Notes under the pieces: generated by a model
The model's input: only the letters and a program-made list of their open reading frames with translations
What the model was told of the DNA's origin: nothing
Databases searched by the model: none
Source: an uncultured Gammaproteobacteria bacterium
GTDB lineage: Bacteria > Patescibacteriota > Patescibacteriia > Patescibacteriales > WJLG01
Direction of reading: 5' to 3'
DNA length: 64,000 nt
Assembly: GCA_964395625.1 (NCBI GenBank)
Contig: CAYNAR010000005.1
Coordinates: 6,537 to 70,536, forward strand
Position numbers and translations under genes: made by a program
Shown: positions 16,639-56,107 of the stretch, piece after piece
Numbering within the stretch: position 1 is the first letter of the stretch
Layout: the number at the start of each line of letters is the position of its first letter

Positions 16639-16642
16639 AAAT

Positions 16643-18634: not shown

Positions 18635-18639
18635 TTTTT

Positions 18640-26570: not shown

Positions 26571-26588
26571 ATTTTTTATACACATAAA

Positions 26589-27716
26589 ATGAATATAGCT
26601 TTGGTTCATGACCACCTAGCTCAAGACGGTGGTGCGGAGAAAGTTTTAAAGGTCTTTACGGAGATGTTCCCCGAGGCTCGCATTTATACTTTGCTTTCTG
26701 AAAAAAATAATGTAGAGAAAAACTATCCAGGTTGCAAGATAGATACGTCGATAATTCAAAGATTGCCAGGTGGCGTAAAACATTATCAGTGGTATATGCC
26801 GTTTATGCCGATGGCGGTGGAGTTTTTCGATTTGACCAGTTACGACTTGGTGATATCCGATTCCTCGGCTTTTTCCAAGGGGATTATAACGAGACCGGAG
26901 ACCATGCATATAGACTATTGTCATACACCGACTCGTTATCTTTGGAGTGATACCCATAAATACATAAAAGAGCTCGGCTATAATAAGTTTCTTAAAAAAA
27001 TCATATTTTTAGTTTTGAACTATATTCGTCTTTGGGACAGGCAAGCCGCGCAAAGACCGGATTTCGTCATAGCCAACTCTAAGACCGTACAAAAGCGAAT
27101 CAGTAAATATTATGATCGTGACAGTGAAGTTATATACCCGCCGGTGGACACCAAGAGATATAATGTGACTGGTGAGCTTTTTGATGAAGGGTTGCACAAA
27201 GAGGATTATTTCCTTATCGGGTGTCGTTTGGCCCCTTACAAGAGGGTTGATATAGTCATAGAGGCTTTCAAAAAGATGCCGGAGCGTAAATTGAAGATAT
27301 TCGGTTCAGGCGTCGATTTCGAAAGATTGAATAAATTAGCCGAAGGAGCTTCGAATATCGAATTTTTAGGAAGAGTGGAATGCGATCGTCTCGCTAAACT
27401 TTTTTATAATGCCAAGGCTTTTATTCATCCGCAGGAAGAGGATTTCGGTATCAGTGCCGTGGAGTCCATGGCTTGTGGGACTCCGGTCATAGCCTATGGG
27501 AAAGGTGGCGCGACCGAGATAGTGACTAATGGAAAGAGTGGCATCTTTTTCGACAAGCAGACTCCGGAGGCTGTCATTGTCGCGGTGAATAATTTTTCAA
27601 GAGATGGATTCGATAAGCTGGTTGTTCGCGCGGAGGCGGAAAAATTCAGCGCAGATAGGTTTAAAGAAGAGATTAAAATGTTCATTAATAGAAAGTTCGA
27701 GGATTTCAAAAAATAA
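26589..27716 (+). CDS. Glycosyltransferase family 4
   Basis: 'HPQEEDFGISAVESMACGTPVIAYGKGGATEIV' is a GT4 EX7E motif. Confidence 0.85.
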   Translation: MNIALVHDHLAQDGGAEKVLKVFTEMFPEARIYTLLSEKNNVEKNYPGCKIDTSIIQRLPGGVKHYQWYMPFMPMAVEFFDLTSYDLVISDSSAFSKGIITRPETMHIDYCHTPTRYLWSDTHKYIKELGYNKFLKKIIFLVLNYIRLWDRQAAQRPDFVIANSKTVQKRISKYYDRDSEVIYPPVDTKRYNVTGELFDEGLHKEDYFLIGCRLAPYKRVDIVIEAFKKMPERKLKIFGSGVDFERLNKLAEGASNIEFLGRVECDRLAKLFYNAKAFIHPQEEDFGISAVESMACGTPVIAYGKGGATEIVTNGKSGIFFDKQTPEAVIVAVNNFSRDGFDKLVVRAEAEKFSADRFKEEIKMFINRKFEDFKK

Positions 27717-27744
27717 ATTTCACAATTCCACAAAGGAAGGGTCT

Positions 27745-28077
27745 ATGAGATCTAAAGAGCGTAGGGTTTTTGATTTTCGTATTTTTCTCGGTAAAACATC
27801 AGAGAAGTATGGTATGTCTCCTGCCTATAAAGGGAGGGTGAGAATCGGTATCGATGGTGGTGTTTCGGCGACGATGCTCGGCGAGAAGGGGGATGCCTTG
27901 TCTACGGTTTGTGGTAATGCGACAGGTGTAAAAATAGAATTTTCCTTTGGCAACGACGTGACCTTTTCTTTTCCTTTCAGTAAAGTCACTTATCCTGGTT
28001 TACCGCTCGGTAATTACATGATAGGAAAGTATGGCAATGATTCATTTTGTGATGAAGCGCTTGCTGTCTATAAATGA
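27745..28077 (+). CDS. Small hypothetical protein (110 aa) within the glycosyltransferase cluster
   Basis: ATG at 27745 preceded by AAGGAAGG RBS. The track's longer 27604 start would overlap the upstream glycosyltransferase. No recognisable family. Confidence 0.45.
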   Translation: MRSKERRVFDFRIFLGKTSEKYGMSPAYKGRVRIGIDGGVSATMLGEKGDALSTVCGNATGVKIEFSFGNDVTFSFPFSKVTYPGLPLGNYMIGKYGNDSFCDEALAVYK

Positions 28078-28131
28078 GAAATTCGATCAAGGGAGCCTCA
28101 AAAGCTCCTTTTTTAAACTAATAAGCTTCTT

Positions 28132-29274
28132 ATGAATATAGGAGTCGACATTAGGGTTTTGACGGACAAAAAGTATAGTGGAGTATCTTGGCATGTACTG
28201 GAGCTATTGTCCGCTATTTTGGCGATCGATAAGGATAATCGATATTTTTTGTATTATAATTCTTTTCATGATTTGCGTAGTCGTTTGCCCTTATTGGATA
28301 ATTCCGTCGCCAAGATCGTTTCTACGAAATTCCCCAACAAGGTATTTAATTATTTTTTGCAAAAGATTTTTCGTTGGCCTAAGTTGGATGTGGTTGTCGG
28401 AGGGTCTTCTGATAAAATGGATTTGTTCTGGTTGCCTCATATAAATTTTTCTTCGATTTCCGATGGTTGCAAGAAAGTTCTGACTATTCATGACCTTTCG
28501 TTTTTGATTTATCCTGAGTTTTTTTCTTTTCGCAAGAACCTTTGGCACCGTTCTCTCGGCTTGAGAAGATTGGTCAAGGAATCAGACGTCGTGGTGGCTA
28601 TTTCCGATAGCACGAAAAACGACATAATGAAGATTTTTGATGTTTCCGAAGATAAAATAAGAGTTATACCACCGGGTGTCGATAGTAGGTTTGTAAAAAA
28701 GGAGCTTTGTGAATTGGAGGGCGTTAAAGAAAAGTACAAATTGCCTGAAAAATTTATTTTCAACATTGGTAATTTGGAGCCGAGGAAGAATATCGCCGGT
28801 TTGATTCGCGCTTTCGATTCTGTCGCCGATAAAGTAGATGATTATTACTTAGTACTGGCTGGCGGGGTGGGGTGGAGGAATAGAGAAATCCTTTCAACTA
28901 TCGATAAATCCAAAAACAGAGAGAAGATTAAGGTTTTGGGTTACATTGACGATGTCGATAGACCGGCTTTGTATAATTTAGCTAAGTTATTTACTTACCC
29001 GTCTTTCTATGAAGGATTCGGCTTGCCGATTCTGGAGGCGATGGCCTGTGGCTGTCCTGTAGTGACTGGCAATGCGTCGTCTTTGTCGGAGGCGGCCGGC
29101 GATGCCGCTTTATTAGTGGATATCAACAACGAAAAAGCTATTGAAGAGGCTTTGATGACTTTGATTAACGACGGGGATTTGAGATGTCGTTTGTCGGAAA
29201 AAGGACTAGAGCAGGCTAAAAGATTTAAATGGGTGGAAGCAGCTGAAAAATATCTTGAAGTTTTTAAAAAATAG
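28132..29274 (+). CDS. Glycosyltransferase family 4
   Basis: 'PSFYEGFGLPILEAMACGCPVVTGNASSLSEAAGDAALLVD' is a GT4 motif. Confidence 0.85.
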   Translation: MNIGVDIRVLTDKKYSGVSWHVLELLSAILAIDKDNRYFLYYNSFHDLRSRLPLLDNSVAKIVSTKFPNKVFNYFLQKIFRWPKLDVVVGGSSDKMDLFWLPHINFSSISDGCKKVLTIHDLSFLIYPEFFSFRKNLWHRSLGLRRLVKESDVVVAISDSTKNDIMKIFDVSEDKIRVIPPGVDSRFVKKELCELEGVKEKYKLPEKFIFNIGNLEPRKNIAGLIRAFDSVADKVDDYYLVLAGGVGWRNREILSTIDKSKNREKIKVLGYIDDVDRPALYNLAKLFTYPSFYEGFGLPILEAMACGCPVVTGNASSLSEAAGDAALLVDINNEKAIEEALMTLINDGDLRCRLSEKGLEQAKRFKWVEAAEKYLEVFKK

Positions 29275-36865: not shown

Positions 36866-36897
36866 AAAAAAACACCGGCTAGTGCCGGTGTTTTTTT
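36866..36897. terminator. Bidirectional terminator between the histidine kinase (+) and clpB (-)
   Basis: AAAAAAA-CACCGGC-UAGU-GCCGGUG-UUUUUUU. The clpB stop codon sits in the T-run. Confidence 0.65.
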
Positions 36898-39565
36898 AAT
36901 TCTTAACGCTTAGGACGACTTTATTCTCTAGTCCGAGATCGATTGACACTTTTGATCCTTCTTTAATCTTTCCCTCTATTATTTCCAGCGACAGTTCATC
37001 GAGTATTTTGCTCTGTATAAGTCTTTTGAGTGGTCTGGCTCCAAAGGTTATATCATAGCCCTCGTTGGCCAGCATCTTTTTCATCTTAGGGCTTATTTTT
37101 AGGACGATGTCTTTATTCCTTAGTCTGCTTTGAACCTTGGAAAGCTCTAGGTCGACTATGTTTTCCAAAGACTCTTTGTCGAGCGCTCTGAAAACCACTA
37201 TTTCGTCGATACGGTTCAAGAATTCCAGTTTGAAGTATTCTCTTAATTTGCCGTCTATTTGATTTTTCATCTCCTTGAAATCGTTTTCTTTGGCATTTTG
37301 GCCCTCGTTGTCTTTGAAGCCTATGGAGAATTTTTTGATTATCTCATTACCAAGATTCGAAGTCATTATTATGACGGTGTTCTTGAAATTTACGGTTCTA
37401 CCCTTGGAGTCGGTCAAGCGTCCATCGTCCAATAATTGCAGTAAGATGTTGAACACTTCCGGGTCGGCTTTCTCTACTTCATCGAAAAGTATTACGCTAT
37501 ATGGGCGTCGACGTATCTTTTCTGTCAATTGTCCGCCGTCGTCATGCCCGACATAACCCGGAGGTGAGCCGATTAGCTTGGCTACGCTATGTTTCTCCAT
37601 GTATTCGCTCATATCCACTCTGATCAAGGAATTTTCGTCGTCGAACAGGAAAGAGGCTAGTGATTTGGCTAGCTGCGTTTTTCCGACGCCGGTCGGGCCT
37701 ACGAATAAGAACGAGCCTATTGGTCTTCCTTCCTCGCCAATGCCTGCGCGAGAACGACGTATCGCATTAGCGATCGAATGTATGGCATCGTTTTGACCGA
37801 TGACTTTTTTCTTCAATTCTTCTTCCATGTGCGAAAGCTTGCTGATTTCGCTTTCCATCATTTTGGATACAGGAACACCTGTCCAGCGAGAGACTACTTT
37901 TGCGATGTCCTCGGCGTCTATCTCTTCTTTAAGGATGGATTGTCCTTTTTTCTGGATTTCCGATAATTCTTTTTCGGCTTTTTTGACTTGTTTTTCCAGT
38001 TCAGGAATTTGTCCGTAACGTATTTCCGCCACCTTCATTAAGTCGTCACCGCGTCTTTCGGCTATTTCCGATTGTATCTTTAGTTCGTCTATCTGCCTCT
38101 TGGATTGCCTTATTTTGGCGATGGCGTCTTTTTCATTCCGCCAATGCAATTCTAATTGATTCGCTTTTTCTTTCAGCTCTTCCAGTTTTTTATTTAATTC
38201 TTTTTCCGAGAAGTCGTTCTTCTTGTCTTTGAATCCGCCCATTTTTATTATCTCTAGGCGGCGAATCTCTTTTTTCATTTTTTCCAAATCTTCCGGAGTC
38301 GAGTCGACTTCCATGCGCAAGGCGGAAGTGGCTTCGTCGATCAGGTCGATGGCCTTGTCGGGAAGGAAACGATCGGATATATAACGACTGGAAAGTTTTA
38401 CGGCCGATATTAAAGCTTCATCGGTGATGCGTATGCCGTGATGTATTTCGTATTTTTCTTTAATGCCACGTAAAATATCCACTGTATCCTCCTCAGTTGG
38501 TTCGGCGACATAGACCGGCTGGAAACGACGTTCCAAGGCGGCATCTTTCTCGATGTATTTTTGATATTCTTTGGTGGTCGTAGCTCCTATGGTGCGTATT
38601 TTACCGCGAGCCAAGGCCGGTTTTAACATATTGGAAGCGTCCATAGCCCCCTCACTGGCACCGGCACCGACGATAGTGTGCAATTCATCGACGAACAATA
38701 TGATATTACCATCTTGAGATTCGATCTCTTTCAGGACGGCCTTCAGTCTTTCTTCGAACTCGCCACGGAATTTGGCACCGGCGATCAATGCGCCAAGATC
38801 AAGCGATACTAGTTTGCGGTTGCGTAAATTCTCCGGAACGTCATTGGCTATGATACGTTGCGCCAAGCCTTCCACGATGGCCGTTTTTCCTGTTCCGGCG
38901 TCTCCGATGAGGACAGGGTTGTTTTTTGTGCGTCTGAGTAAGACCTGCATTATCCTTCTGATTTCTGAATCGCGACCGATTACGGGGTCCAGTTTTTTTT
39001 GTTTGGCCAGCTCCGTCAAATCAACGGTGTATTTTTCCAAGACGCGATATCTTACCTCCGGATCCGGATCGGTTATCGTTTTATTTCCTCTTAATTCCGT
39101 TAAGATTTTAGCGACTTGCTCGTATTCCACGCCATACTTGTTCAATACTTCCTTGGCTATGGATTTTACATTGAGAATGGATAGGAAGATGTGCTCGGTG
39201 GAGATGAATTCATCCTTCATTTTGTCCGCTTCTTTTTTTGACCCCTCCAATACGAAAGCAGCCTCAGCGGTTCCTGACACTGTGCCTACATTGCCATTAT
39301 TAAAGGGGGAGTGGTTGTTTATTTGCGGTTTTGCCGGATTCTTTTTGGCCGTCTTTTCCAATTCATCTAAAATTTCTTCATGTATATCTTCGGGGTCTAT
39401 AGCCATTTTTTCGAGAATCGGTTTCACCAAGCTCTCGTCTTGCTCCAAAAGGGAGCAGAGGAGGTGGGAGGCCTCGATATTTACTTGCCCGTATTCTTGG
39501 GCTATTATTTGAGCATTTATTATAGCTTCCTGAGACTTTGTAGTGAATTTATTGAACATATTCAT
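36896..39565 (-). CDS. clpB: ATP-dependent chaperone ClpB (Hsp100 disaggregase)
   Basis: Clp N-domain, two AAA+ modules (Walker A 'GDAGTGKTA' and 'GPTGVGKTQ') separated by a long coiled-coil M-domain. 889 aa. Confidence 0.95.
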
Positions 39566-39748: not shown

Positions 39749-40057
39749 ATGGTGGAAGTGGTCGGCGAAGATTTGGGCAGTATTATCACCCGCTTGAACT
39801 CTAAAATGGATCAAAAGATGGAGTTTAACGAGTCTTTTTTTGAAGATGTTAAATTTCTTGTTCTTGCGGGTGGAAAAACTGAATGTGTGGTAGATGTAAT
39901 TCAGAGGGTATTCTGTGTCATTAAAAGCAAGAAAATGAAAGAAGAAGTTCCTTCTCCTCTTAATGAAAAAATTAATAAGTTCATAAGAGATTGTTTCGAC
40001 ATAGATGAAATAGGTTATATTAGCTTTAAAAAAGCAAGCCCAAGTCTTTGTCGCTAG
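39749..40057 (+). CDS. Hypothetical small protein (102 aa)
   Basis: ORF with its own upstream promoter-like hexamers and a downstream terminator. No recognisable motif. Confidence 0.45.
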   Translation: MVEVVGEDLGSIITRLNSKMDQKMEFNESFFEDVKFLVLAGGKTECVVDVIQRVFCVIKSKKMKEEVPSPLNEKINKFIRDCFDIDEIGYISFKKASPSLCR

Positions 40058-40064
40058 AATAAGT

Positions 40065-40097
40065 TCCTCCCCGATAAAAAGGGAGGACTATTTTTTT
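40065..40097 (+). terminator. Rho-independent terminator
   Basis: UCCUCCC-CGAUAAAAA-GGGAGGA followed by CUAUUUUUUU. Confidence 0.6.
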
Positions 40098-40102
40098 AAC
40101 AG

Positions 40103-41347
40103 ATGACAAAAGAAGATAAGTCGTTTATAATTAAAATGATGGAAAAAATAACTATTTTAGGGATAAAAATAGACAATATTGATAGGAATGGTGTTGTCGG
40201 CGAAATCGATCGCCTGCTTAATGGCGGGCAACATTTAGTTTTTACCCCTAATCCGGAGATAATATTAGAGGCTAGTAAGGATGAAGAGTTATTCTATATA
40301 TTAAATCAAGCCGATTTATCACTTCCGGATGGTTTTGGGTTGAAAGTAGCGGCTTTCCTGTGTGGTAAAAAGATAGCTAGGGTTTCCGGTTCGGATGTGG
40401 TTGTCGATTTATTGCAGAAGTGCGAAAAAAGTTTAATTCCCGTCGGTTTTGTTATTTGGGAGAATGGGCTGTCCACTAAACAGGATGTCGTAGATGGTGT
40501 AAGTAGGAAGTATCCGAAACTGGAGTTTAAAGTTCAAGTAGGTGGTCGTTCTAATAATTTTGAGCCGAATGAGGAGTTCTTGTCGATCAATCCTGGTGTC
40601 GTATTTTTTGCTCTGGGCTGTCCTTGGCAAGAAAAAAACGCCTATCATTCGATATCTAAGATAGGCTCAGCTAAGGTTTTAATGGGCGTTGGGGGAGCGA
40701 TCGACTTTATATCCGATAAAGTGCGAAGAGCCCCGAAATTCATGCGCTATTGTGGATTAGAGTGGCTATGGAGATTAATTTTGAATCCTGGGAGGGTGAA
40801 AAGGATTTTTAACGCGGTAGTCGTTTTTACTTGGCGCGTTCTTGAAAGCCGGTTCATTCAACCATTTTTGTATCGTTCTTGTGTGTCTTGTCTTTTATAT
40901 AAAAGAAACAGCTCTGGAAAATACGACATCCTTGTTGTTGAAAGACAGGGCGAGCTTGGGCATTGGCAGCTTCCGCAAGGAGGAACCGATGGCGAGGAAA
41001 TTCTTAAAGCGGGGGAGAGGGAATTGCGAGAAGAGCTTAATACTGATAGGATAATTCCCAAACGCGTCTTTAAGCATCTGTATCGCTATAAATTCGGTGT
41101 TGGCGTCGGTATCAAAAAGAATGAAAAAAACGGACGAAATCGTCACATGGGTTACAAAGGGCAAAGATTGGGTTTGTTTATAGGCGAGTTCGTCGGTTGC
41201 GACGAGGATATAAAGGTGAATTTTTGGGATCACTCGGCTTGGAAGTGGGTAGATTCCGAAGACTTGGTTAATCAGGTGCATTTAGTTAGGCGAAGATCGG
41301 CTGAGATTTTTTTGAAAAAATTCAAAGAATTTGTTAAGAAAAAATAA
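40103..41347 (+). CDS. Fusion protein: WecB/TagA/CpsF-family glycosyltransferase (GT26) N-terminal domain plus C-terminal NUDIX hydrolase
   Basis: N-terminal 'ILGIKIDNIDRNGVVGEIDRLL...LVFTPNPEIILEA' is GT26-like. C-terminal 'LPQGGTDGEEILKAGERELREELN' is a complete Nudix box GX5EX7REUXEEXGU. Confidence 0.7.
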   Translation: MTKEDKSFIIKMMEKITILGIKIDNIDRNGVVGEIDRLLNGGQHLVFTPNPEIILEASKDEELFYILNQADLSLPDGFGLKVAAFLCGKKIARVSGSDVVVDLLQKCEKSLIPVGFVIWENGLSTKQDVVDGVSRKYPKLEFKVQVGGRSNNFEPNEEFLSINPGVVFFALGCPWQEKNAYHSISKIGSAKVLMGVGGAIDFISDKVRRAPKFMRYCGLEWLWRLILNPGRVKRIFNAVVVFTWRVLESRFIQPFLYRSCVSCLLYKRNSSGKYDILVVERQGELGHWQLPQGGTDGEEILKAGERELREELNTDRIIPKRVFKHLYRYKFGVGVGIKKNEKNGRNRHMGYKGQRLGLFIGEFVGCDEDIKVNFWDHSAWKWVDSEDLVNQVHLVRRRSAEIFLKKFKEFVKKK

Positions 41348-41360: not shown

Positions 41361-42899
41361 ATGGACAATAAAAAGATTCGTACGCGCTTCGCGCCATCTC
41401 CGACAGGCTTCTTGCATATAGGCAATTTGCGCACTGTTTTATTCGAGTATTTGACCGCTAAATCTTTAAAAGGGGATTTTATCCTTCGTATCGAGGATAC
41501 TGATCAAAAAAGAGAGGTGAAAGGTGCCGTCGAAAAACTTATAGATGTCTTGGATTGGGTCGGTATCAAATTCGACGAGGGTCCGCATGTCGGTGGGGCT
41601 TATGGTCCGTATATTCAGACGGAGCGTTTGGATGTGTATAAAAAATTTACACAGCAATTAATTGATAAAGGCGAGGCTTATTATTGTTTCTGTACCGAAG
41701 AAAGATTGGCTAAAATGCGTGAGGAGCAGGAGGCCATGAAGAAACCGCCACGCTATGACCGTTGTTGTCGTGATATTTCGATAGAGGAGGCTAATAAAAG
41801 AATCGCCAATGGTGAAAAATACGTCGTGCGTCAAAAGATGCCGCTTAGCGGTAAATTTACGTTTCACGAAGAATTGCGTGGAGATCTCGAGTTCAATGCC
41901 GAAGAGCTCGATGATCATGTCTTGATTAAATCCGATGGTGTTCCGACTTATCATTTCGCTTCCGTAGTCGATGATCACCTGATGGAAATAACTCATGTCT
42001 TGCGCGGTTCCGAGTGGTTGCCGTCTTTCCCGAAGAATGCGCTTCTATACCGTTCTTTCGGATGGGAAGCTCCAAAATTCTACCACCTATCATTAATAAT
42101 GAATAAAGAGGGCGGTAAGTTGAGCAAGCGCCAAGGGGATGTTGCCGTGGAGGATTTTCGTAAGAAAGGCTACTTAAAGGAGGGTTTGATAAATTTCATG
42201 CTTCTTTTAGGCTGGCATCCGGAAGGGGATAATGAAATAATAAGCCTATCGGAAGCGGAAAAACTTTTTAAACCGGAAAATATCGGTGTTTCTCCAGCTA
42301 TCTTCGATATAGAGAAGTTAGATTTCTTCAACGGTTATCATATTAGGCAAAAGGGTCTCGACGAATTAGTTGATCTTTGTCGCCCTTATTTGAGCGATAA
42401 TCTAGGATTAACCTCTCGTGAGGATAAAAAAGGAGATGAATTTTTGAAGAGAGTTATATTTTTGTCTCGTGAACGTCTAAAGAAACTTTCGGAGATTTCG
42501 GAGCAGACTAGATATTTTTTTACGGAGAAGTTGGAGTTCGATCCGGCTATGCTTGTTTGGCGCAAGTCTGACGCTGCTGGGGCTAAATCGGCGCTTAGCG
42601 ACCTTAAATTAGTCATAGAGGGTATTCCTGAAGATTGTTTCTCTTTTGGTTTAGACGAGTTAGCCGGTGTCGGTTCTATCGAAAATGGTAAGGCTGTGGT
42701 TAATCCGAATGTCGCCAAAATACAGGACATAATCATGGAGTATTTGCAAAAGAATGAAAAAGGGACAGGGGATTATCTTTGGCCCATGCGGGTTGCCTTG
42801 ACTGGCGAGAAGGCTTCTCCTTCTCCGTTCGAGATGGCATGGGCTCTTGGCAAAGAGGAGACGATATCCAAGATAACTAACGCGATCAGCAAGCTTTAA
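41361..42899 (+). CDS. gltX: Glutamate--tRNA ligase
   Basis: 'IRTRFAPSPTGFLHIGNLRT' (HIGH) and 'KLSKRQ' (KMSKS) are class I GluRS signatures. Start placed at ATG 41361. Confidence 0.9.
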   Translation: MDNKKIRTRFAPSPTGFLHIGNLRTVLFEYLTAKSLKGDFILRIEDTDQKREVKGAVEKLIDVLDWVGIKFDEGPHVGGAYGPYIQTERLDVYKKFTQQLIDKGEAYYCFCTEERLAKMREEQEAMKKPPRYDRCCRDISIEEANKRIANGEKYVVRQKMPLSGKFTFHEELRGDLEFNAEELDDHVLIKSDGVPTYHFASVVDDHLMEITHVLRGSEWLPSFPKNALLYRSFGWEAPKFYHLSLIMNKEGGKLSKRQGDVAVEDFRKKGYLKEGLINFMLLLGWHPEGDNEIISLSEAEKLFKPENIGVSPAIFDIEKLDFFNGYHIRQKGLDELVDLCRPYLSDNLGLTSREDKKGDEFLKRVIFLSRERLKKLSEISEQTRYFFTEKLEFDPAMLVWRKSDAAGAKSALSDLKLVIEGIPEDCFSFGLDELAGVGSIENGKAVVNPNVAKIQDIIMEYLQKNEKGTGDYLWPMRVALTGEKASPSPFEMAWALGKEETISKITNAISKL

Positions 42900-42942
42900 C
42901 GCTTACTGATTTTTGCATTAATAATTGATTAATTTTAAAGAT

Positions 42943-43248
42943 ATGGAAAAAATAAATATCGGAGATATCGAGAAAATTATCATTCCTCTAGAAAGTGATT
43001 TTGGTATAAGTTGCCAAAAAGGAGATAGGTCTTTGGAGCTTTCCGTTCCACCTCTAATCATTGATGGGTTAGATACTTTTGAAATAGCTGAGGCGTTGGA
43101 TGGTTATTTTCCCCTAGGCGCAAGAAAAGTAGAACAAGCCAACGGGTATTATATTGTCGAATTTTCTCTTGGAACAAAATCCGAGGAAATCCAGTCTTTG
43201 GTTAAAAAAATAGAGAGGGCTTACAAGGATAAAACTTTAAAAGAATAA
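42943..43248 (+). CDS. Hypothetical small protein (101 aa) between gltX and asnS
   Basis: Short ORF conserved in orientation. No recognisable motif. Confidence 0.4.
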
Positions 43249-44733: not shown

Positions 44734-45096
44734 ATGAACAACTCCAATTCTTCCACTACCTCAATCGTTATAGCGGATATTTTTTGGAATATCTTGTTTT
44801 TTCCTATCTGGTGGTATTCCATCGGGTTAGTAGAATTCTTAAAAAAAATAAAAGTTTTTTTAAGCGATAAGCAAAAGTCGCTCGGCCTTTTCGTTTGGAT
44901 AAAGAATATTTTTGTCCCCATGTACGGACAGAAGGATTTTCAGGGTGTCATGATAAGTATCGTAATGCGCTTCATTCAAATAGTGTTTAGATTTTTGGCG
45001 ATGGTTTTTTGGTGTTTGGTGTCTTTTGTCGCCGTACTAGCGTGGTTGTCTTTTCCGATTTTATCGGTTTGGGGGATATTTTATCAAATCTTTTAA
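44734..45096 (+). CDS. Hypothetical small membrane protein (3 TM)
   Basis: Hydrophobic 120-aa ORF immediately upstream of the membrane-anchored Clp-like ATPase. Confidence 0.45.
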   Translation: MNNSNSSTTSIVIADIFWNILFFPIWWYSIGLVEFLKKIKVFLSDKQKSLGLFVWIKNIFVPMYGQKDFQGVMISIVMRFIQIVFRFLAMVFWCLVSFVAVLAWLSFPILSVWGIFYQIF

Positions 45097-45101
45097 TTCT
45101 T

Positions 45102-47846
45102 ATGGAGGAAATTAAGGATAAAATCGAATTCGTGAACTGTGACGAATGTAACGGCACTGGTTTTTCTGACAAGAAAAAAGTTTGCAATAATTGTCACGGA
45201 CAAGGCCTTGGGGCTTTTTTTCTTGGTAATTTTTTGTATTGCAAATCCAGTATCGACAGGGAGAGTATCTCTTCGCGGGCTATGCGAAAGAGGATTATTT
45301 CCGCCATTGATGTTATCTCCTATATCTTTTTTGTCGTCGGCATAGGCTCTATTTTTTTCTATTTGATAAAGAACGATGTTGTTAGTAATTCTCGCTGGAC
45401 GGATGTCTTACAAGACAAGAGTATTTTTATTTTATTTTTCTATTTTTCCTGTCTGTCTTTTTCTTTCTTGATCTATAGAAATAGTCAAAAAAGGCAAGAG
45501 AGGGAAAAGATAAAGAAGCTTCATGAGAGCGAGACTTTTCCGGATAATTGGGGTGATTTGCGCAAATACAAAAGAAGCGTCGAAGTTTTGTCGATGTGCA
45601 ATGAAAACACTTTTCATCTATTGGAGTGTTCTTACCTTTTGGCACGTCGTCTTAAAAATAAGGAAATCAGAGCTCTTCATGTTTTTTCGGTATTTATAGA
45701 AAAGTCCGTGGAAGTAAAATCCCTCCTATTTCGTTTAAATGTCGATTTGTCCGCAATTAAGGAGAAAATCGATAATCAACTTTCTTTGCTTGAGAAAGAT
45801 CTTGTTTCTGGTGAAAATGTCGAATTCGGCTTATCGACCAAGGAAGTTTTAATAGAATCTTTTATAGACGCTTATAATAACAAACAAAAAGACATAAAGG
45901 CATTGAATGTTTTTTCTTTTTGTTTTGAAAAGGAGTCTATAATAAAGGAGATTCTCCTTGATTTTAAAGTCAATGAGAACAAGATAAAAAACACGATAAC
46001 TTGGTTTCGTATAAACGATAAACAGATAGAGAATTATAAGCTGTATAAAAAATTAGCACATTATAAGCCGTCGTCTTCGATGGATCGCGCTTACACTGCG
46101 GTAGCAACTCCTTTTTTGAATAATTTCGGCTATGATTTGACCTTGGCCGCCAAGTGGGGGCGTCTTGATGTTTGTGTCGGCAGGGACAAGGAAATAAGAA
46201 GTATTTTTGAAGCTTTAGAAGGTGGTAGCGCCGGAGCCCTACTTACTGGCCCAGATGGAGTTGGTAAGCGCTCCGTTATTAATGGTATTGCCAGGGAGAT
46301 GGTTATGGAGGAGGATATTCCTATGATTTTGAAAGATAAGCGACTCATTGAGTTGGATGTCGCAAGATTAGTTTCTGGCGCTTCGCCGACTGTCGCCCAA
46401 GAAAGGATGTTGACCATAATAGATGAGATAAATCGTGCCGGCAATATCGTTCTTTTTCTTGAGAACCTTGAAAATATCGTCGGCATAGCAGCGGGAGGTG
46501 AGGAGAGTTTAGAGCTTTCGGAAGTTCTTTCCGGAGAGTTGGATAGAGGGGCTCTGCTTTGTTTTGCCACAGTCTCGGAAAGTAATTATATAAAGTATAT
46601 AGACAATAAGGCTATTGGAAATGTTTTTGCCAGGATAAAGATAGGCGAGCCGGTCGGAGATCAAGCTATGATGATGTTAGAAAGCAAAATAGGATATATA
46701 GAGGCAAAACACGGCGTATTTTTCTCTTATAACGCGGTAGAGGCGGCAAGGGATCTTTCCGTTAAATTCATCCATGATAAATACCTTCCGACTAAAGCAG
46801 TCGATATTCTGGAAAAGACAGCCGCTCGTCTTAGTAGTAGAAAGAAAGGCGAGACCGTGGTCTGCGATCGCAACGATATCGCCTTGACCATAAATCAGAT
46901 GACCGACATTCCGGTACAGGACTTGGAGGAGGGTGAAGGCGAGAAATTATTAAATCTGGAAGAGGAGATGCATAAGTACATGATCGGTCAGCACGAAGCC
47001 GTGCAAATGGTAGCCGACGCTTTGCGTCGTTCTCGAGCGGAACTGCGTTCAGGAAATAGACCGATAGCTAATTTTTTATTCCTTGGTCCGACCGGTGTCG
47101 GTAAGACGGAATTGGCTAAAACTATAACTAGGGTTTATTTTCAAAAAAAGGACTTCATGATTCGTCTTGATATGAGTGAATATCAGCACGAGGACAGTGT
47201 TAAAAAGATGATTGGCGATGTCGACGGTGTTCAAGGGTATTTGACTGAGTCTGTCCGCCAGAAGCCTTTTTCTCTTGTTCTGCTTGACGAATTCGAGAAG
47301 GCTAATCCCAAGATATTCAACCTTTTTTTGCAAGTAATGGATGATGGACGTCTCACTGACGGCCAAGGAAGAACGATTGATTTTACAAATAGCATAATAA
47401 TAGCTACCTCCAATGCTGGTTCTGATTATGTGCAGGAACAGGTTCGAAATAATGTGCCAATGGAACAAATAAAGGAAGTTTTGATAAATGATCATCTATC
47501 AAAGGTGATGAGGCCGGAGTTGGTGAATCGTTTTGACGGAATAATCATATTCAAACCGTTAACCGAGAGTGATATTGAACAAATAGCTGGTTTAATGTTA
47601 AAAGATATAAAATCACTTCTCGAGGAGAAGGGCGTCGGTTTGGAAGTTTCACCAAGTGGTCTTAGTGTTTTGGCGGCTGCCGGATATGATCCCAAATTCG
47701 GTGCACGCCCATTGCGTCGCCTGATCCAAGAGAAAGTAGAGAATGAGATCGCTAAGAAACTTCTTTCCGGCGAAATAAAGAGGCGCGATGTGGTCTTTAT
47801 AGACGACGCGGCCGAGATAGTAGTTAAAAAAGGAATGGAGCTTTAA
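45102..47846 (+). CDS. Membrane-anchored Clp/Hsp100-family AAA+ ATPase with N-terminal DnaJ-type zinc finger and degenerate first Walker A
   Basis: N-terminal 'CDECNGTG...CNNCHGQG' (two CxxCxGxG repeats) then two TM helices. Clp-N-like repeats. D1 'LLTGPDGVGKRS' (Walker A Thr/Ser replaced by Arg). D2 '[18 protein letters not shown]' intact. No long M-domain and no IG[FL] ClpP loop. Confidence 0.8.
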   Translation: MEEIKDKIEFVNCDECNGTGFSDKKKVCNNCHGQGLGAFFLGNFLYCKSSIDRESISSRAMRKRIISAIDVISYIFFVVGIGSIFFYLIKNDVVSNSRWTDVLQDKSIFILFFYFSCLSFSFLIYRNSQKRQEREKIKKLHESETFPDNWGDLRKYKRSVEVLSMCNENTFHLLECSYLLARRLKNKEIRALHVFSVFIEKSVEVKSLLFRLNVDLSAIKEKIDNQLSLLEKDLVSGENVEFGLSTKEVLIESFIDAYNNKQKDIKALNVFSFCFEKESIIKEILLDFKVNENKIKNTITWFRINDKQIENYKLYKKLAHYKPSSSMDRAYTAVATPFLNNFGYDLTLAAKWGRLDVCVGRDKEIRSIFEALEGGSAGALLTGPDGVGKRSVINGIAREMVMEEDIPMILKDKRLIELDVARLVSGASPTVAQERMLTIIDEINRAGNIVLFLENLENIVGIAAGGEESLELSEVLSGELDRGALLCFATVSESNYIKYIDNKAIGNVFARIKIGEPVGDQAMMMLESKIGYIEAKHGVFFSYNAVEAARDLSVKFIHDKYLPTKAVDILEKTAARLSSRKKGETVVCDRNDIALTINQMTDIPVQDLEEGEGEKLLNLEEEMHKYMIGQHEAVQMVADALRRSRAELRSGNRPIANFLFLGPTGVGKTELAKTITRVYFQKKDFMIRLDMSEYQHEDSVKKMIGDVDGVQGYLTESVRQKPFSLVLLDEFEKANPKIFNLFLQVMDDGRLTDGQGRTIDFTNSIIIATSNAGSDYVQEQVRNNVPMEQIKEVLINDHLSKVMRPELVNRFDGIIIFKPLTESDIEQIAGLMLKDIKSLLEEKGVGLEVSPSGLSVLAAAGYDPKFGARPLRRLIQEKVENEIAKKLLSGEIKRRDVVFIDDAAEIVVKKGMEL

Positions 47847-47849: not shown

Positions 47850-48875
47850 ATGTTTCAATATATCGCAATTTGTCTAGTCGCTTTTTCTTTGTCTTTATTG
47901 TTTACACTTATAATTGAGAAAGTAGCTTGGAAGTTTAAGGCGCTTGATTATCCATCAGCAAGAAAGATACATGTCGGTCCAACACCCCTTTTGGGTGGAG
48001 TGGCTGTTTTTTGTTCTTTCTTTGTATCGATATTTCTTTTTAAAAACAACCTTTTGGTTGGTGATCTTGGTGCATGGAATTGGGTTTGGTTTTTTGCCGG
48101 TGGTGTTTTCTTAATTATTGGTGGTGTTTGGGATGATTTTAAGAATCTACCACCATCCAAACAGCTTGTGTTTCCGTGTTTAGCCGTAATTTGCGTTTTG
48201 ATTGGTGATATAGGCATCGAAAAAATAGGCAATCCTTTTGGCGGACTGCTTTTTTTTAATAGTGTTTTATCCGATGTCCTTACTGTCGTTTGGTTGATGT
48301 TGATGATGTATACGACAAAACTATTGGATGGGGTCGACGGATTAGTGACGGGCGTGTCGGTCATTGGCGGTTTTACTATCTTTTTATTCACTGCAACCAC
48401 TAAGTATAGCCAGCCGGATATAGCATTGGCCTCGATTGCTTTAGCTGGGGCCGGTATTGGTTTTTTGATTCGTAACTGGAATCCGGCTAAGATTTTTCTT
48501 GGCGAATCTGGTTCATTGTTTTTTGGTTATTCATTGGGTGTCCTGTCTATAATATCTGGTGGTAAGATAGCTATCGCTTTGCTTGTTCTCGGATTACCTT
48601 TATTAGATGTCGTTTGGACGATATTAAGAAGGTTGTTAGCTGGCAATAATCCATTCAAGGCTTCTGACAAGAAGCACTTGCACCATCGTTTTATGGAGTT
48701 GGGTCTTTCTCAAAGAAAGACAGCCTTGCTGTTTTATTTTGTTTCCGCCTTTTTCGGTTTGAGTGGTTTATTTTTGCAGAGTCTGGGAAAGCTGGCGGCT
48801 GTTTCAGCCCTATTTTTATTAATGGCTGTTTTTGTTGTTTTCTTTTCGATACATGAGAGGAAAAAAAAATCTTAA
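47850..48875 (+). CDS. MraY/WecA-family polyprenyl-phosphate N-acetylhexosamine-1-phosphate transferase
   Basis: 10-11 TM helices. 'DDFKNLPPSKQL' and 'LDGVDGL' are conserved MraY/WecA cytoplasmic-loop motifs. Confidence 0.85.
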   Translation: MFQYIAICLVAFSLSLLFTLIIEKVAWKFKALDYPSARKIHVGPTPLLGGVAVFCSFFVSIFLFKNNLLVGDLGAWNWVWFFAGGVFLIIGGVWDDFKNLPPSKQLVFPCLAVICVLIGDIGIEKIGNPFGGLLFFNSVLSDVLTVVWLMLMMYTTKLLDGVDGLVTGVSVIGGFTIFLFTATTKYSQPDIALASIALAGAGIGFLIRNWNPAKIFLGESGSLFFGYSLGVLSIISGGKIAIALLVLGLPLLDVVWTILRRLLAGNNPFKASDKKHLHHRFMELGLSQRKTALLFYFVSAFFGLSGLFLQSLGKLAAVSALFLLMAVFVVFFSIHERKKKS

Positions 48876-48876
48876 T

Positions 48877-49788
48877 ATGAGAAAAAGACTATATATTTTT
48901 ATTTTAATTTGCTGGTTAGTTGGAATATTTTCCCTCATGCTCGTTCCTATGCCACCAGTTCCGGATGTTGTCAAAAAGATAACTCTCTATGATAAAGGGG
49001 CTCATCTTATCTTTTTTTCAGTGACTAATTTTTTATTATTGACGATTATTTACAGATTTAAAAAATTCAATTTTTTCATATCGGCGGTTTTGGCATCCTT
49101 CATCTCTTTGGCCTTAGCTTTTTTGGCGGAGGAGATGCAAACCTTTATTCCGGGAAGAGAAAATTCCTCTTTGGATTTTTTGGCCGGAGCCATAGGAGTG
49201 GCTATTTCTTGTCCAATAGCCTACGTGTTCAATCATGATCCGAGAAAGAGATTGGCTCTTCATGTCTGCTGTGCGCCTTGCACTACGGCCGTCTATGAGG
49301 ATTTATCCAAAGAATACAATATCGAATTCTTTTTTTCCAATGCCAATATTTTTCCAAAGAGCGAGTATGAAAAGAGACTTAGGGAGGTTAAAAAGCTTGG
49401 TAAGATATTCAACGTTAGGGTTGTAGAGGATAGGTATTCTCATAAGGCGTGGAGGAAGTTTATTTCCGGAATGGAAAACGATAAGGAGGGCGGTAGTCGT
49501 TGCGATCATTGTTTTTCTTTTAGGTTGAGTAGGGTGGCTGCAAAGGCGAAGAGTATGGGTTTTAGCATGTTTGCCACAACTTTAAGTATTAGTCCTCATA
49601 AAAATACTGAAAAAATAAATAGATGCGGCAGGGAGGCTGGCGAAAGATACGGCATGAGTTTCTTAGGTTATGACTTCAAAGAGAACGATGGTTTTAAAAG
49701 GTCCATCGTTTTGTCAAAGAATTTTGGCTTATATAGGCAAAAATATTGTGGGTGTGAATTTTCTATGCCAGATAGGGTTAAAATTTGA
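48877..49788 (+). CDS. queH: Fusion: VanZ-like membrane domain plus epoxyqueuosine reductase QueH (DUF208)
   Basis: N-terminal ~130 aa with 3-4 TM helices (VanZ-like). C-terminal 'LHVCCAPC...FFFSNANIFPKSEYEKR...CDHCFSFR...YCGCE' matches QueH Cys motifs. Start at ATG 48877. Confidence 0.75.
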   Translation: MRKRLYIFILICWLVGIFSLMLVPMPPVPDVVKKITLYDKGAHLIFFSVTNFLLLTIIYRFKKFNFFISAVLASFISLALAFLAEEMQTFIPGRENSSLDFLAGAIGVAISCPIAYVFNHDPRKRLALHVCCAPCTTAVYEDLSKEYNIEFFFSNANIFPKSEYEKRLREVKKLGKIFNVRVVEDRYSHKAWRKFISGMENDKEGGSRCDHCFSFRLSRVAAKAKSMGFSMFATTLSISPHKNTEKINRCGREAGERYGMSFLGYDFKENDGFKRSIVLSKNFGLYRQKYCGCEFSMPDRVKI

Positions 49789-53264: not shown

Positions 53265-54527
53265 ATGTCAAAAATCAAGGAGATAAAGGGAAGGGAAATA
53301 TTGGATAGTTGTGGCAATCCGACCGTCGAAGTGATTATTCGCTCCGATGATGGTTTTTTTTCTTGTGCAAGTGTCCCAACTGGCGTTTCCACTGGCGAAT
53401 TGGGTGCCTTGGAGTTGCGCGATCGAGACCCAAGAAGATATCATGGAATGGGTGTTTTGCGCGCCATCGAGAATATTGAGAAAAAAATATCTCCAGCGAT
53501 TCTTGGTATGGACGTTTTTGATCAAAAAGGTATCGATGAGACAATGATTTCTTTAGACGGTTCCGATAATAAGATGAATTTGGGTGCTAATGCTGTTTTC
53601 TCGGTTTCTTTAGCTGTATCACGTTTGGCTGCTAAGGTGAAAGGATTAGAGCTTTACGCCTATCTGGGTGAAAGCTTTGATTTTGGTGCTCCGTCACTAC
53701 CGACACCTTGTTTTAATATGTTCAATGGCGGGAAATATGCCGACACCAATCTTGATTTTCAAGAATTCATGATAGTACCGTTGGGTAAAAAAACAGTATC
53801 TGAAAAAGTAAGGATGGGTTCTGAAATATTCTGCGAGCTTGCTAAAGTTTTAAGAAAAGGTGGTTTTGACACCGATGTAGGAAGTGAAGGAGGATATTCT
53901 CCTGATATAAGTTCTAGTGTTCAAGCGATAGAATTTATGTTATCGGCTTCGATAAATGCCGGTTACAAACCGAAGATCGATGTCGGAGTTGGTATAGATA
54001 TCGGCTCTTCGGAATTATTCGATTCCTATAAGAATAGTTATATTTTTAAATTGGATAGAGCTGTTTTTTCAAGTAAAACTTTGATTGGTCTTTATAATGA
54101 GTGGCTTAAGGATTTTCCAATCGTTTTTCTGGAAGACGGATTGTCTTATGACGATTGGAGTTCTTGGAGTGAACTCACTTCTGAGCTTGGTGGCAAAATA
54201 ATGGTAGTCGGGGACGATGTTTTCTCTTCGGACCAATCTAGGCTCAGAAAAGGGCTAAAGGAAAAGGCCGGCAATTCCATTGTTGTCAAACCAAGTCAGG
54301 CTGGAACTGTGACCGAGACGATGGATTGTGTAAAATTAGCAAAAAGACATAATTATAAAATAGTTATTTCTCATAGTTATGGCGAGACTAACGATGATTT
54401 TATAGCTGACTTATCTGTCGCTGTTGGAGCGGATTTTATAAAAGCAGGGTCGCTTTCTCGAGGTGAGAGAGTTTCCAAATATAATAGATTGATGGAGATA
54501 GAAAGAATAATGAAAATAAAAATATGA
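53265..54527 (+). CDS. eno: Enolase
   Basis: 'KGREILDSCGNPTVEV' N-terminus and 'SHSYGETNDDFIADLSVA...KAGSLSRGERVSKYNRLMEIE' C-terminal signature. Confidence 0.95.
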   Translation: MSKIKEIKGREILDSCGNPTVEVIIRSDDGFFSCASVPTGVSTGELGALELRDRDPRRYHGMGVLRAIENIEKKISPAILGMDVFDQKGIDETMISLDGSDNKMNLGANAVFSVSLAVSRLAAKVKGLELYAYLGESFDFGAPSLPTPCFNMFNGGKYADTNLDFQEFMIVPLGKKTVSEKVRMGSEIFCELAKVLRKGGFDTDVGSEGGYSPDISSSVQAIEFMLSASINAGYKPKIDVGVGIDIGSSELFDSYKNSYIFKLDRAVFSSKTLIGLYNEWLKDFPIVFLEDGLSYDDWSSWSELTSELGGKIMVVGDDVFSSDQSRLRKGLKEKAGNSIVVKPSQAGTVTETMDCVKLAKRHNYKIVISHSYGETNDDFIADLSVAVGADFIKAGSLSRGERVSKYNRLMEIERIMKIKI

Positions 54528-56107
54528 AAATAAAAAATACATGCCAAGCAAATCTGTTTAATGAGGATTATATCCTCCCAATGATTTTGATAGTTTTGGA
54601 TGGATGGGGGATTGCTAAGCCTAGTCGAGGGAATGCCATAACCATAGCTAAAACTCCAACAATAGACTCCCTTATTAAAAAGTATCCCTTCACTAAATTA
54701 TTCGCCCACGGCAAATATGTCGGTTTACCGGTTAAACAAGTTGGTAATAGTGAGGCTGGGCATATGAATATGGGTGCTGGCAGGGTAGTCGAACAGGATG
54801 CTGTAAGGATCAATGATAGTATTGTCAACGGAACTTTCTTTAAAAATCCAGCCTTTAAAGAGGCTATTAATCATGCCCATAAAAACCATTCCAGATTACA
54901 TTTAATGGGAATGCTTTCTGATGACATGAGTCCTCACAGTGACATGAGCCATCTCGTGGCACTTATCAAGATGGCTAAGGACAATGGATTGATAAATAAT
55001 CTATATCTGCACTTATTCACCGATGGTCGTGATTCTCCGCAGCACGAGGCTTTGCGCTTGATAATGGAGTTGCGTCGCAGGTCAAAAGATAAAGTACCGA
55101 TTTCCACTATAATGGGTCGTTTTTATGCCATGGACAGAAAGAAGTCTTGGGGCAGAACCAATGATGCTTATAATGCGATAGTTATGGGAAAGGGGTTGCA
55201 AGCAGACGATGCGGCTCAAGCCATAGTCGAAAGTTATAACAGGAATGAAACTGATGAGTATATAAAACCATATGTCATAGATAAGAAAGGAGTGATAAGC
55301 GACAATGATTCCGTAATTTTCTTTAATTTAAGATCTGACAGGGCTCGTCAACTTGCTAAAATATTCGTTCAGAAAGACTTTAACAAAAAAAATCCAGGGT
55401 CTCTTCCTAGGGCAAGATTGGTTAAAAATCTTTGTTTTGTTTCAATGACTGATTTTGGTCCTAATCTTGAAGAGATACATAAGGCGTATCAATCCGATGA
55501 CTTGACTAGCACTCTTCCAATAGCTTTAGGAGGGTATTCCCAGGCTTATATGGCGGAGTCGGAAAAATTCGCTCATGTGACTTATTTTTTTAATGGAGGA
55601 TATCCTGGTCGCATAGGAGGAGAAGAGCAATATGTCATTCCATCTCCGAATGTGAATTCTTATGACAAGACGCCAGGAATGAAGTCTGTCGCCTTAACGA
55701 AGAAAGTTTTGGAAAATTTAAAAAATAGCAAATTTGATTTTACTCTGTTGAATTTTGCTGCCTCGGATATGGTTGCTCATACTGGTAACCTTAGAGCTGG
55801 TGTTAAGTGTTGTGAAATACTGGATGATTGTATTAAAAAGATAACCGACGCTTATTTAAAGAATGATGGTACTGTTATAATAACGGCTGATCATGGAAAT
55901 ATAGAAGAGATGATCAATCTTGAGACTGGAGAGGTTGACACGGAACACTCGACTAATCAGGTGCCATTCATTCTTGTTAACAAGAGCCTGAAAGGGATTA
56001 AAATAAATAATGGCGGTGCCTTGTGCGATATAGCGCCTACCATTCTTGACTTATTGAATCGAAAAAAACCCAAAGAAATGACCGGAAAAAGTTTAATAAA
56101 AAAATGA
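54524..56107 (+). CDS. gpmI: 2,3-bisphosphoglycerate-independent phosphoglycerate mutase
   Basis: 'LIVLDGWGIA', 'GNSEAGHMNMGAGRV' (catalytic Ser) and 'TADHGN' are diagnostic. Overlaps eno by 4 nt. Confidence 0.95.
   Translation: MKIKNTCQANLFNEDYILPMILIVLDGWGIAKPSRGNAITIAKTPTIDSLIKKYPFTKLFAHGKYVGLPVKQVGNSEAGHMNMGAGRVVEQDAVRINDSIVNGTFFKNPAFKEAINHAHKNHSRLHLMGMLSDDMSPHSDMSHLVALIKMAKDNGLINNLYLHLFTDGRDSPQHEALRLIMELRRRSKDKVPISTIMGRFYAMDRKKSWGRTNDAYNAIVMGKGLQADDAAQAIVESYNRNETDEYIKPYVIDKKGVISDNDSVIFFNLRSDRARQLAKIFVQKDFNKKNPGSLPRARLVKNLCFVSMTDFGPNLEEIHKAYQSDDLTSTLPIALGGYSQAYMAESEKFAHVTYFFNGGYPGRIGGEEQYVIPSPNVNSYDKTPGMKSVALTKKVLENLKNSKFDFTLLNFAASDMVAHTGNLRAGVKCCEILDDCIKKITDAYLKNDGTVIITADHGNIEEMINLETGEVDTEHSTNQVPFILVNKSLKGIKINNGGALCDIAPTILDLLNRKKPKEMTGKSLIKK

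Follow-up and report, generated by a model that had tools for sequence, protein, structure and literature searches.

The window examined here, by which we mean the whole stretch of 64,000 nucleotides at positions 6,537 to 70,536 of contig CAYNAR010000005.1 (assembly GCA_964395625.1), comes from a genome that is named as an uncultured Gammaproteobacteria bacterium and placed in the Patescibacteriota by GTDB. It has 41% G+C and a housekeeping content typical of a small genome. On its forward strand lies a single open reading frame (ORF) whose product joins an N-terminal half of glycosyltransferase family 26 (GT26), resembling TagA, to a C-terminal Nudix domain of the RppH clade, and which is followed directly by gltX (Table 1). 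An earlier note on this DNA, made from the sequence itself, had drawn attention to the ORF of 414 amino acids (aa), and it is present exactly as described there. Judged from the sequence, it is highly probable that both halves are real, truly fused and catalytically competent.

Table 1. Features of the fusion gene and of the genes discussed with it (positions in the window; pLDDT, predicted local distance difference test score).
Feature	Position	Strand	Basis and remarks
GT26-Nudix fusion gene, whole ORF	40103..41347	+	ATG to stop, 414 aa plus stop; both Pfam domains above cut-off
Probable true start codon, M13	40139..40141	+	product of ~402 aa
GT26 core (GT-E fold), aa 13-204	40139..40714	+	T48-P-N50-P-E52, D76 (predicted catalytic base) and Q176, all invariant in 40 homologues
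TagA-type C-terminal tail, aa 205-247	40715..40843	+	alignment to TagA residues 195-236
Long helix, aa 229-255, from the TagA tail into the first Nudix strand	40787..40867	+	AlphaFold, pLDDT 90-97
RppH-clade Nudix domain, aa 257-414	40871..41344	+	NCBIfam, Foldseek and residue alignment
Nudix box, aa 293-313, GGTDGEEILKAGERELREELN	40979..41041	+	regular-expression match; G-x4-E-x7-REL-x-EE-x-N
Hairpin TCCTCCCC-GATAAAA-AGGGAGGA, then T-run	40065..40097	+	sequence inspection; same stem scanned on the opposite strand
Promoter-like ATGACA-17-TATAAT	40103..40131	+	consensus scan, 11/12 positions; overlaps the annotated start codon
gltX (glutamyl-tRNA synthetase)	41361..42899	+	Pfam tRNA-synt_1c; 512-aa gene call in the independent assembly L082
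WecA/TagO-like polyprenyl-phosphate GlcNAc-1-phosphate transferase	47850..48875	+	Pfam Glycos_transf_4

The fusion is confirmed as genuine and as widely conserved across deeply divergent members of the ultra-small Patescibacteria. No frameshift or missed stop was found near 40800-40900, where the earlier note had advised a check, and contigs of two further sequencing runs (SRR27710297 and SRR11845623) encode the identical 414-aa product. Among 5.8 billion proteins searched there were 1279 relatives, and the best 120 clusters, drawn from NCBI, JGI, ENA and Logan assemblies, are all (120/120) continuous proteins of ~400 aa with both Pfam domains, at 45-62% identity. Similarly, 483 candidate stretches were confirmed as relatives when one genome per GTDB species was searched, and the best 80 of them all match over residues ~10-410. 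Thus, the same fusion, which that note had also proposed to look for in related genomes, extends to at least 120 protein clusters and, at species level, to at least 80 genomes of Patescibacteria. The junction residues A238, F242, Y257 and C263 are invariant in an alignment of 40 homologues. The source names of the relatives are Patescibacteria group, Parcubacteria and Candidatus Falkowbacteria, the last of which belongs to the Parcubacteria group of Patescibacteria. One of the divergent fused proteins comes from a genome of the Parcubacteria group, and a 69-aa Jacksonbacteria fragment falls into its 90%-identity cluster.

Only the contig L081 (ENA ERZ23486237 scaffold_180446, 183-1425) showed the halves as separate genes, with a 221-aa GT26 gene and, behind it in a different frame, a Nudix gene of 171 aa (P0122). 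This split is an artefact because the break coincides exactly with a scaffold gap of N's, and P0122 (58% identical) was rejected as a natural stand-alone Nudix protein; as a cluster representative it only looks like such a protein. An assembly artefact or frameshift as the origin of the fusion was likewise rejected, given the identical ORF in independent runs and the continuous homologues in the best clusters and GTDB loci.

Many of the relatives' loci (e.g. L001, L003, L007 and L014) stand in records titled 'uncultured Gammaproteobacteria bacterium' (third-party annotation assemblies), and the locus L019 of the fusion gene in a 'Methanosarcinaceae archaeon' bin. Such titles on Patescibacteria-type loci are probably placeholder names or reflect mis-binned contigs. 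The same gltX synteny is probable at the oddly titled loci.

With regard to the N-terminal half, which the earlier note had likened to GT26, PF03808 (Glyco_tran_WecG) matches aa 70-235 (E 2.5e-31, 109.2 bits against a Pfam cut-off of 27.4) and the NCBIfam model TIGR00696 (WecB/TagA/CpsF) is passed with 94.8 bits against a cut-off of 69; the profile search suggested in that note also puts NUDIX above its Pfam cut-off. Two equivalog models of NCBIfam were not reached, namely TarA (NF041710; 91.9 bits against 350) and WecG (78.1 bits against 323). By phmmer, aa 13-247 align with residues 1-236, the full length, of Thermoanaerobacter italicus TagA (7mpk; E 4.4e-29, ~30% identity), and Foldseek gave a template-modelling (TM) score of 0.85 between the AlphaFold model and TagA.

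In TagA, D65 is the essential catalytic base, N39 and Q167 hydrogen-bond N-acetylmannosamine (ManNAc), E210 and W211 pack the C-terminal tail, R221 and R224 hold the diphosphate of uridine diphosphate (UDP), R214 is a proposed binder of the lipid diphosphate, and I203, L209, L212 and I216 form a nonpolar tail patch that binds the membrane (PMC8784642). All of these have counterparts in the fusion protein. TagA N39, E41, D65 and Q167 correspond to N50, E52, D76 and Q176, and E210, W211, R214, R221 and R224 correspond to E220, W221, R224, R231 and R234, the active-site lid residues of the tail; every one of them is invariant in the 40 homologues. The membrane-binding patch is represented by F213, L219, L222 and I226. 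Because the key residues of TagA are invariant and the patch is nonpolar, the GT26 half is predicted to be a complete and active TagA-like enzyme. Its donor is plausibly of ManNAc type, though this is not proven because the TarA equivalog cut-off was missed. Genes for MnaA (UDP-N-acetylglucosamine (GlcNAc) 2-epimerase), TagB, TagD, TagF and LCP were found neither in the 64-kb window nor among the conserved neighbours of the fusion gene.

The C-terminal half matches the Pfam family NUDIX (PF00293) at aa 258-393 (E 9.6e-9, 35.8 bits against a cut-off of 21.1), and Foldseek assigned it the Nudix fold with a probability of 1.00 to many Nudix structures. Its best NCBIfam models are all of RNA pyrophosphohydrolase, and all of its significant matches there are of RppH, NudB or NudI type; no nucleotide-sugar Nudix model in NCBIfam, including that of GDP-mannose mannosyl hydrolase, matched at E <= 0.001 (the S. 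pneumoniae UDP-X diphosphatase SP_1669 was not compared directly). Among solved structures, E. coli RppH is the top match (4s2y; E 8.9e-12, TM 0.77), followed by hydrolases of diadenosine tetraphosphate (Ap4A), and by sequence the top PDB match other than TagA is the lupin Ap4A hydrolase (1f3y, E 1.6e-5).

When residues 250-414 served as a phmmer query against 1.84 billion representatives, 385 proteins reached E <= 1e-3, of which 57 reached E <= 1e-10. The GT26 domain is also present in 56 of the best 150 relatives of the Nudix half, counted as 50%-identity representatives, including members just 30-40% identical, seven of which were confirmed by Pfam. The nearest true stand-alone Nudix relatives are at most 38% identical and RppH-like, and two of the stand-alone relatives, P0169 (187.8 bits) and P0183 (149.4 bits), exceed the RppH equivalog cut-off of 116. 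In a neighbour-joining tree of 124 Nudix domains, built without support values and with several short sequences, probably fragments, interspersed, the fused domains cluster apart from most stand-alone RppH-like proteins. This topology suggests, but does not prove, that the domains became fused once or a few times long ago. Elsewhere, Nudix domains of this RppH-like subtype have other fusion partners, namely Polysacc_deac_2 (divergent), LigT/2H phosphoesterase and Asparaginase_2 (P0187, P0233 and P0249); the partner LigT hints at chemistry on RNA ends, and the polysaccharide deacetylase leads back to enzymes of the cell envelope.

To locate functional residues, E. coli RppH (a reference sequence identical to PDB 6d13_B) was aligned with 40 fused, 7 divergent fused and 6 stand-alone domains. 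In E. coli RppH, the 5'-phosphates are bound by R8, N10, R27, Q37, Y77, Q95 and K140, and the Mg ions by E53, E57, Q37 and E120 (PMC7144940). The equivalents of the phosphate site (R258, R281, Q292, Y329, Q354 and R396, with R or K at the last) and of the metal site (E307, E311, Q292 and D376, with D or E at the last), as well as E310 for RppH E56, are each present in at least 39/40 of the fused homologues. The position of RppH N10 is occupied by C260 in our protein and by N in 33/40 homologues. Within the Nudix box, E307 and E310 are invariant, and R306, E311 and E298 are conserved to at least 90%. Moreover, the mean pairwise identity of the Nudix half is 59.6%, whereas that of the GT26 core is 52.3%. 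The earlier note had considered that the Nudix domain could be a regulatory pseudo-hydrolase; we rejected this, and likewise a dead remnant, because the catalytic and ligand residues are kept in at least 39/40 and conservation is stronger in the Nudix half than in the GT26 core. As far as the conserved residues tell, we conclude that the Nudix half is a complete RppH-clade hydrolase under strong constraint, and that it falls in no known nucleotide-sugar Nudix family.

AlphaFold modelling on the 40-sequence alignment gave a mean pLDDT of 90.2 and a predicted TM score (pTM) of 0.80, with uncertainty just at residues 1-11 and in a basic loop at ~331-350. The high pTM suggests that the two domains stand in a defined arrangement and form one rigid unit. 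The long helix that connects them begins in the tail that bears R231 and R234, and it stops two residues before Y257-R258 of the Nudix phosphate site.

The protein probably starts at M13 rather than at the annotated ATG, which would give a product of ~402 aa, because the ORF starts at the equivalent of residue 13 or 15 in 34/40 homologues, residues 1-11 have a pLDDT below 50, and the phmmer alignment to TagA begins at M13. The 'GGAGG' upstream of the annotated ATG, which resembles a ribosome-binding site, is the 3' arm of the hairpin, and the hairpin with its T-run looks like an intrinsic terminator for the 102-aa ORF that lies before it. The promoter-like site is a consensus match only, with no evidence of function. 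Transcription from it would start at about 40136-40139, on the ATG codons of M12 and M13, and the fusion mRNA may therefore be leaderless or near-leaderless, with a product that is again probably of ~402 aa. An Rfam scan of 36-45 kb detected zero RNA families.

Downstream, gltX begins 13 nt past the stop codon of the fusion gene without any terminator-like site between them, and the two genes are probably co-transcribed. In the 81 related loci whose ORFs were clustered, gltX lies directly downstream of the fusion gene in 57 and within four genes in 70. The next conserved genes encode a coiled-coil M23 peptidase, a XerC/D-like recombinase, an FtsQ-like membrane protein and alanine racemase, and frequent upstream neighbours are CorA and GT1-type glycosyltransferases. 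This conserved block contains neither an RNA-decay gene nor a UDP-sugar gene, so that the neighbourhood does not discriminate among the readings of the fusion given below. Beside the fusion-gltX pair there are two ORFs without Pfam match, at 39749-40057 (102 aa) and 42925-43248 (107 aa), which are probably real proteins because they were called as genes in the independent assembly L082 too. The locus is flanked by two Clp/Hsp100-type AAA+ genes (45009-47846 and 36896-39565, the latter on the minus strand); one is a standard ClpB (889 aa), and the other encodes a paralogue of 945 aa whose N-terminus is much extended and which matches Clp_N and the first AAA domain only weakly. Clp-like genes are found upstream in 30/81 related loci.

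The WecA/TagO-like gene scored 138.8 bits with the NCBIfam model of wecA (TIGR02380; below its cut-off of 326) versus 58.5 bits with that of mraY. Its product is a candidate, by sequence similarity, for the maker of the lipid-pyrophosphate-GlcNAc acceptor of the GT26 half. The end of this gene is overlapped by a 318-aa ORF (48832-49788) in which a QueH (epoxyqueuosine reductase) domain stands alone at aa 142-312 after an unassigned N-terminal extension of ~140 aa; because of the overlap, the start of this ORF may be mis-set. Further glycan-assembly genes lie within 25155-29274, 12854-22767 and 5359-6042. One group has a Bac_transf phosphoglycosyl transferase followed by two GT1 genes, and another has a GT1 gene followed by a DUF4012 protein (846 aa), a DUF11 protein (663 aa) and a 1375-aa ORF (18640-22767); a GT2 gene is also among them. 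From these genes, the genome has both WecA-type and WbaP-type initiating transferases. Elsewhere in the window, a 340-aa protein encoded on the minus strand (7760-8782) is built of ankyrin repeats over nearly its whole length (Ank_2, E 4e-44). Such a protein is unusual in free-living bacteria and may be connected with life in association with a host. At 54524-56970, the gene of a cofactor-independent phosphoglycerate mutase (527 aa) overlaps by 4 nt with the next one, which encodes a shorter paralogue (288 aa) of the Metalloenzyme superfamily, and the pair is placed after pgk and eno in a run of glycolytic genes.

We propose that the fusion would work as a single bifunctional peripheral-membrane enzyme of Patescibacteria. 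By likeness to TagA, the GT26 half would sit on the cytoplasmic face of the membrane via its nonpolar tail patch and would move a ManNAc-type sugar from a UDP-sugar to polyprenyl-pyrophosphate-GlcNAc, with release of UDP; an acceptor of this kind would be made by the WecA/TagO-like enzyme, whose gene lies 6.5 kb downstream. The Nudix half would perform the chemistry of RppH, that is, the Mg-dependent cleavage of a terminal phosphoanhydride on a nucleotide 5' polyphosphate, and this is the least certain step. The likeliest substrates would be 5'-tri- or diphosphorylated RNA ends or nucleoside tetraphosphate (Np4) caps, and dinucleoside tetraphosphates (Np4N) are also suggested by homology. The GT26 half may act in addition as a membrane tether and a built-in partner of the Nudix half, in analogy to DapF with RppH. 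The homology to RppH favours the 5' end of an RNA or oligonucleotide over UDP or a UDP-sugar as the Nudix substrate, and this preference is a tentative one, to which we would give a little less than an even chance.

Several observations weigh against an RNA 5' end. The Nudix box, which the earlier note had called complete, does contain R306, E307, E310 and E311, but compared with the canonical G-x5-E-x7-R-E-U-x-E-E-x-G-U it lacks one residue in the G...E loop and ends in N instead of the terminal G; N is found there in 30/40 members, and divergent fusions retain the canonical form. The RppH model NF001938 matches the Nudix half (E 1.9e-16) with 59.9 bits, below its equivalog cut-off of 116. 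In the nucleobase cleft for RNA nucleotide 2, where E. coli RppH has R27 stacked over V137 and F139 together with S32, R27 is kept as R281 and F139 is replaced by I or V, and two of three positions are changed with V137 to H393 and S32 to H287; His at the S32 position is present in stand-alone RppH-like relatives, too. The net charge of the Nudix half (+7.2, isoelectric point 9.2) resembles that of E. coli RppH (+8, 9.8), but such a positive charge could fit binding to anionic lipids or the membrane equally well. There is no RNA-decay gene among the conserved neighbours in the 81 loci. Finally, covalent fusions usually unite steps of one pathway, which favours UDP or a UDP-sugar as the substrate.

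Such a coupling within one pathway could take two forms, which we rate under one estimate as possible but rather unlikely. In the first, the Nudix half would cleave the by-product UDP to uridine monophosphate and phosphate, thereby relieving product inhibition and pulling the glycosyl transfer forward; in the second, it would hydrolyse the UDP-ManNAc-type donor as a control or house-cleaning step. UDP leaves TagA last in an ordered mechanism (PMC8784642), and the helix joining the two domains, which is short, conserved and confidently modelled, starts in the very tail that binds the UDP diphosphate through R231 and R234. E. coli RppH binds nucleoside di- and triphosphates and hydrolyses them slowly (PMC7144940), and one of the matches by fold is a structure of RppH with guanosine diphosphate (6vck). 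Some Nudix enzymes are known to act on nucleotide sugars of the cell envelope, such as the UDP-X diphosphatase of S. pneumoniae (PMC3655063), and the conserved neighbours of the fusion gene have a cell-envelope flavour. On the other hand, no nucleotide-sugar Nudix family scored for the Nudix half, caps with just two bridging phosphates are poor substrates of E. coli RppH (PMC12541447), and the alignment revealed no change at the ligand-binding positions that is specific to the fused domains compared with the stand-alone RppH-like relatives. The idea of the earlier note that the domain could hydrolyse the nucleotide-sugar donor or its by-product thus survives as a rival for UDP and UDP-sugars, but not in the form of a generic nucleotide-sugar Nudix enzyme, because the domain is of the RppH clade instead.

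Another possibility, drawn by analogy and in our view improbable, is that the fusion removes UDP-N-acetylhexosamine (HexNAc)-type caps from U-initiated RNAs, the GT26 pocket reading the cap and the RppH-type site cleaving its pyrophosphate. The benefit would be the clearing of capped RNAs or the shielding of wall synthesis from RNA-borne substrate mimics. Bacterial mRNAs carry UDP-sugar caps, for which E. coli has no fast remover and RppH is slow (PMC12541447), and UDP-GlcNAc-capped RNA is accepted by MurA, MurB and MurC; decapping of this kind is therefore conceivable, and the fusion uniquely unites a UDP-HexNAc-binding domain with an RppH-type domain. However, the GT26 half retains the catalytic base and the proposed lipid-acceptor arginine R224 (TagA R214), which a mere cap reader would not need. 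More generally, a role of the fusion as a machine that links envelope glycan synthesis to RNA 5'-end metabolism, with sugar-cap decapping as its strongest form, would be a long shot.

Still less probable, and to our judgement very improbable, is that the Nudix half hydrolyses a lipid pyrophosphate, cleaving polyprenyl-pyrophosphate or its sugar-linked form at the membrane, so that carrier lipid caught in stalled intermediates could be used again. Prenyl diphosphates are substrates of some Nudix enzymes, and here a strongly basic Nudix domain would be held at the membrane beside an enzyme that handles polyprenyl-pyrophosphate-linked sugars. However, the RppH nucleotide-binding residues R281, Y329, Q354 and R396, which have no obvious role with a lipid, are kept, and NCBIfam showed no similarity of the Nudix half to IDI or to prenyl-diphosphate Nudix enzymes. 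The last explanation, an assembly or sequencing error or else an inactive Nudix remnant, could appeal to the separate genes of L081 but is effectively refuted by the N-run at that break, the hundreds of continuous homologues, the conserved junction and a Nudix half that is the most conserved part of the protein.

No paper describing the GT26-Nudix combination was found in the literature, which agrees with the earlier note in that the fusion has no characterised counterpart, and public annotation names it just 'WecB/TagA/CpsF family glycosyltransferase' or by the TagA enzyme name. The fusion is a new, widespread and uncharacterised combination of two known families, and neither a new fold nor a new chemistry. 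In teichoic-acid synthesis TagA is a target for antibiotics, and RppH sets off the mRNA decay that depends on the 5' end; to our knowledge, no characterised protein joins the two types. If the Nudix half is the RppH of the cell, as in the RNA-end reading that we favour, hundreds of Patescibacteria species would anchor the onset of mRNA decay to a membrane glycosyltransferase, which would extend the so far isolated case in E. coli of RppH controlled by the cell-wall enzyme DapF. In its broader form, this would be a covalent link like that of RppH with DapF, through which mRNA decay could respond to the flux of wall precursors in genome-reduced bacteria. If UDP or a UDP-sugar is hydrolysed instead, a bacterial lipid-linked glycosyltransferase would have built-in removal of its by-product, and the RppH scaffold would have been re-used for a mononucleotide, whereas sugar-cap decapping, if true, would provide the first fast bacterial enzyme for such caps. 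Either outcome for the Nudix substrate would correct an annotation that names the glycosyltransferase half alone. For this large uncultured lineage, the fusion offers a lead, open to direct testing, on a possible connection of envelope synthesis with RNA 5'-end metabolism.

In comparison with known systems, curated thresholds place the protein in both the GT26 family and the Nudix superfamily, but they do not show it to be an orthologue of TarA or RppH. It resembles TagA/TarA (GT26, GT-E fold; PDB 5wb4, 7mpk and 7n41), the N-acetylglucosaminyldiphosphoundecaprenol N-acetyl-beta-D-mannosaminyltransferase, in the end-to-end alignment of aa 13-247, the catalytic Asp, the ManNAc-contacting Asn and Gln, the three tail arginines, the Glu-Trp pair and the membrane patch. 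It differs in ~160 extra C-terminal residues that form the Nudix domain, which we know of in no characterised GT26 enzyme, and it is far below the TarA equivalog cut-off, with MnaA and TagB/D/F absent from the 64-kb window. The plant and nematode Ap4A hydrolases (1f3y and 1ktg) share the WQxPQGG...RELxEE core and, apart from TagA, are the sole PDB chains that the sequence search returned. However, they act on dinucleoside polyphosphates as free-standing enzymes, and their structural similarity is below that of RppH. Nudix enzymes of nucleotide sugars (SP_1669, PMC3655063; Gmm/NudD) are similarly tied to envelope glycan synthesis by fusion or gene position, but belong to other Nudix clades and none is fused to a glycosyltransferase.

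The closest likeness of the Nudix half is to E. coli RppH (NudH/YgdP; PDB 4s2y, 6vck and 7sp3), with which it has in common the N-terminal YRPNV and WQxPQGG motifs, the Nudix glutamates, the length, the C-terminal helix and the strong basicity. In contrast to the E. coli enzyme, it is fused and not free, with ~24% identity and a score below the RppH equivalog cut-off, and it has an extra low-confidence basic loop (aa 331-350) and His at the positions of both S32 and V137. E. coli RppH is bound and stimulated by DapF, an enzyme of peptidoglycan-precursor synthesis (PMC6061855; PMC4227774), and the catalytic sites of both enzymes are far from the interface (PMC6061855). As in that pair, an RppH-type enzyme is combined here with an envelope precursor enzyme whose chemistry is unrelated to RNA. 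On the other hand, the pairing in E. coli is non-covalent, with a soluble diaminopimelate epimerase on the helices alpha4 and alpha5 of RppH, whereas the partner in the fusion is predicted to be a membrane-associated glycosyltransferase joined to the N-terminus of the RppH-type domain.

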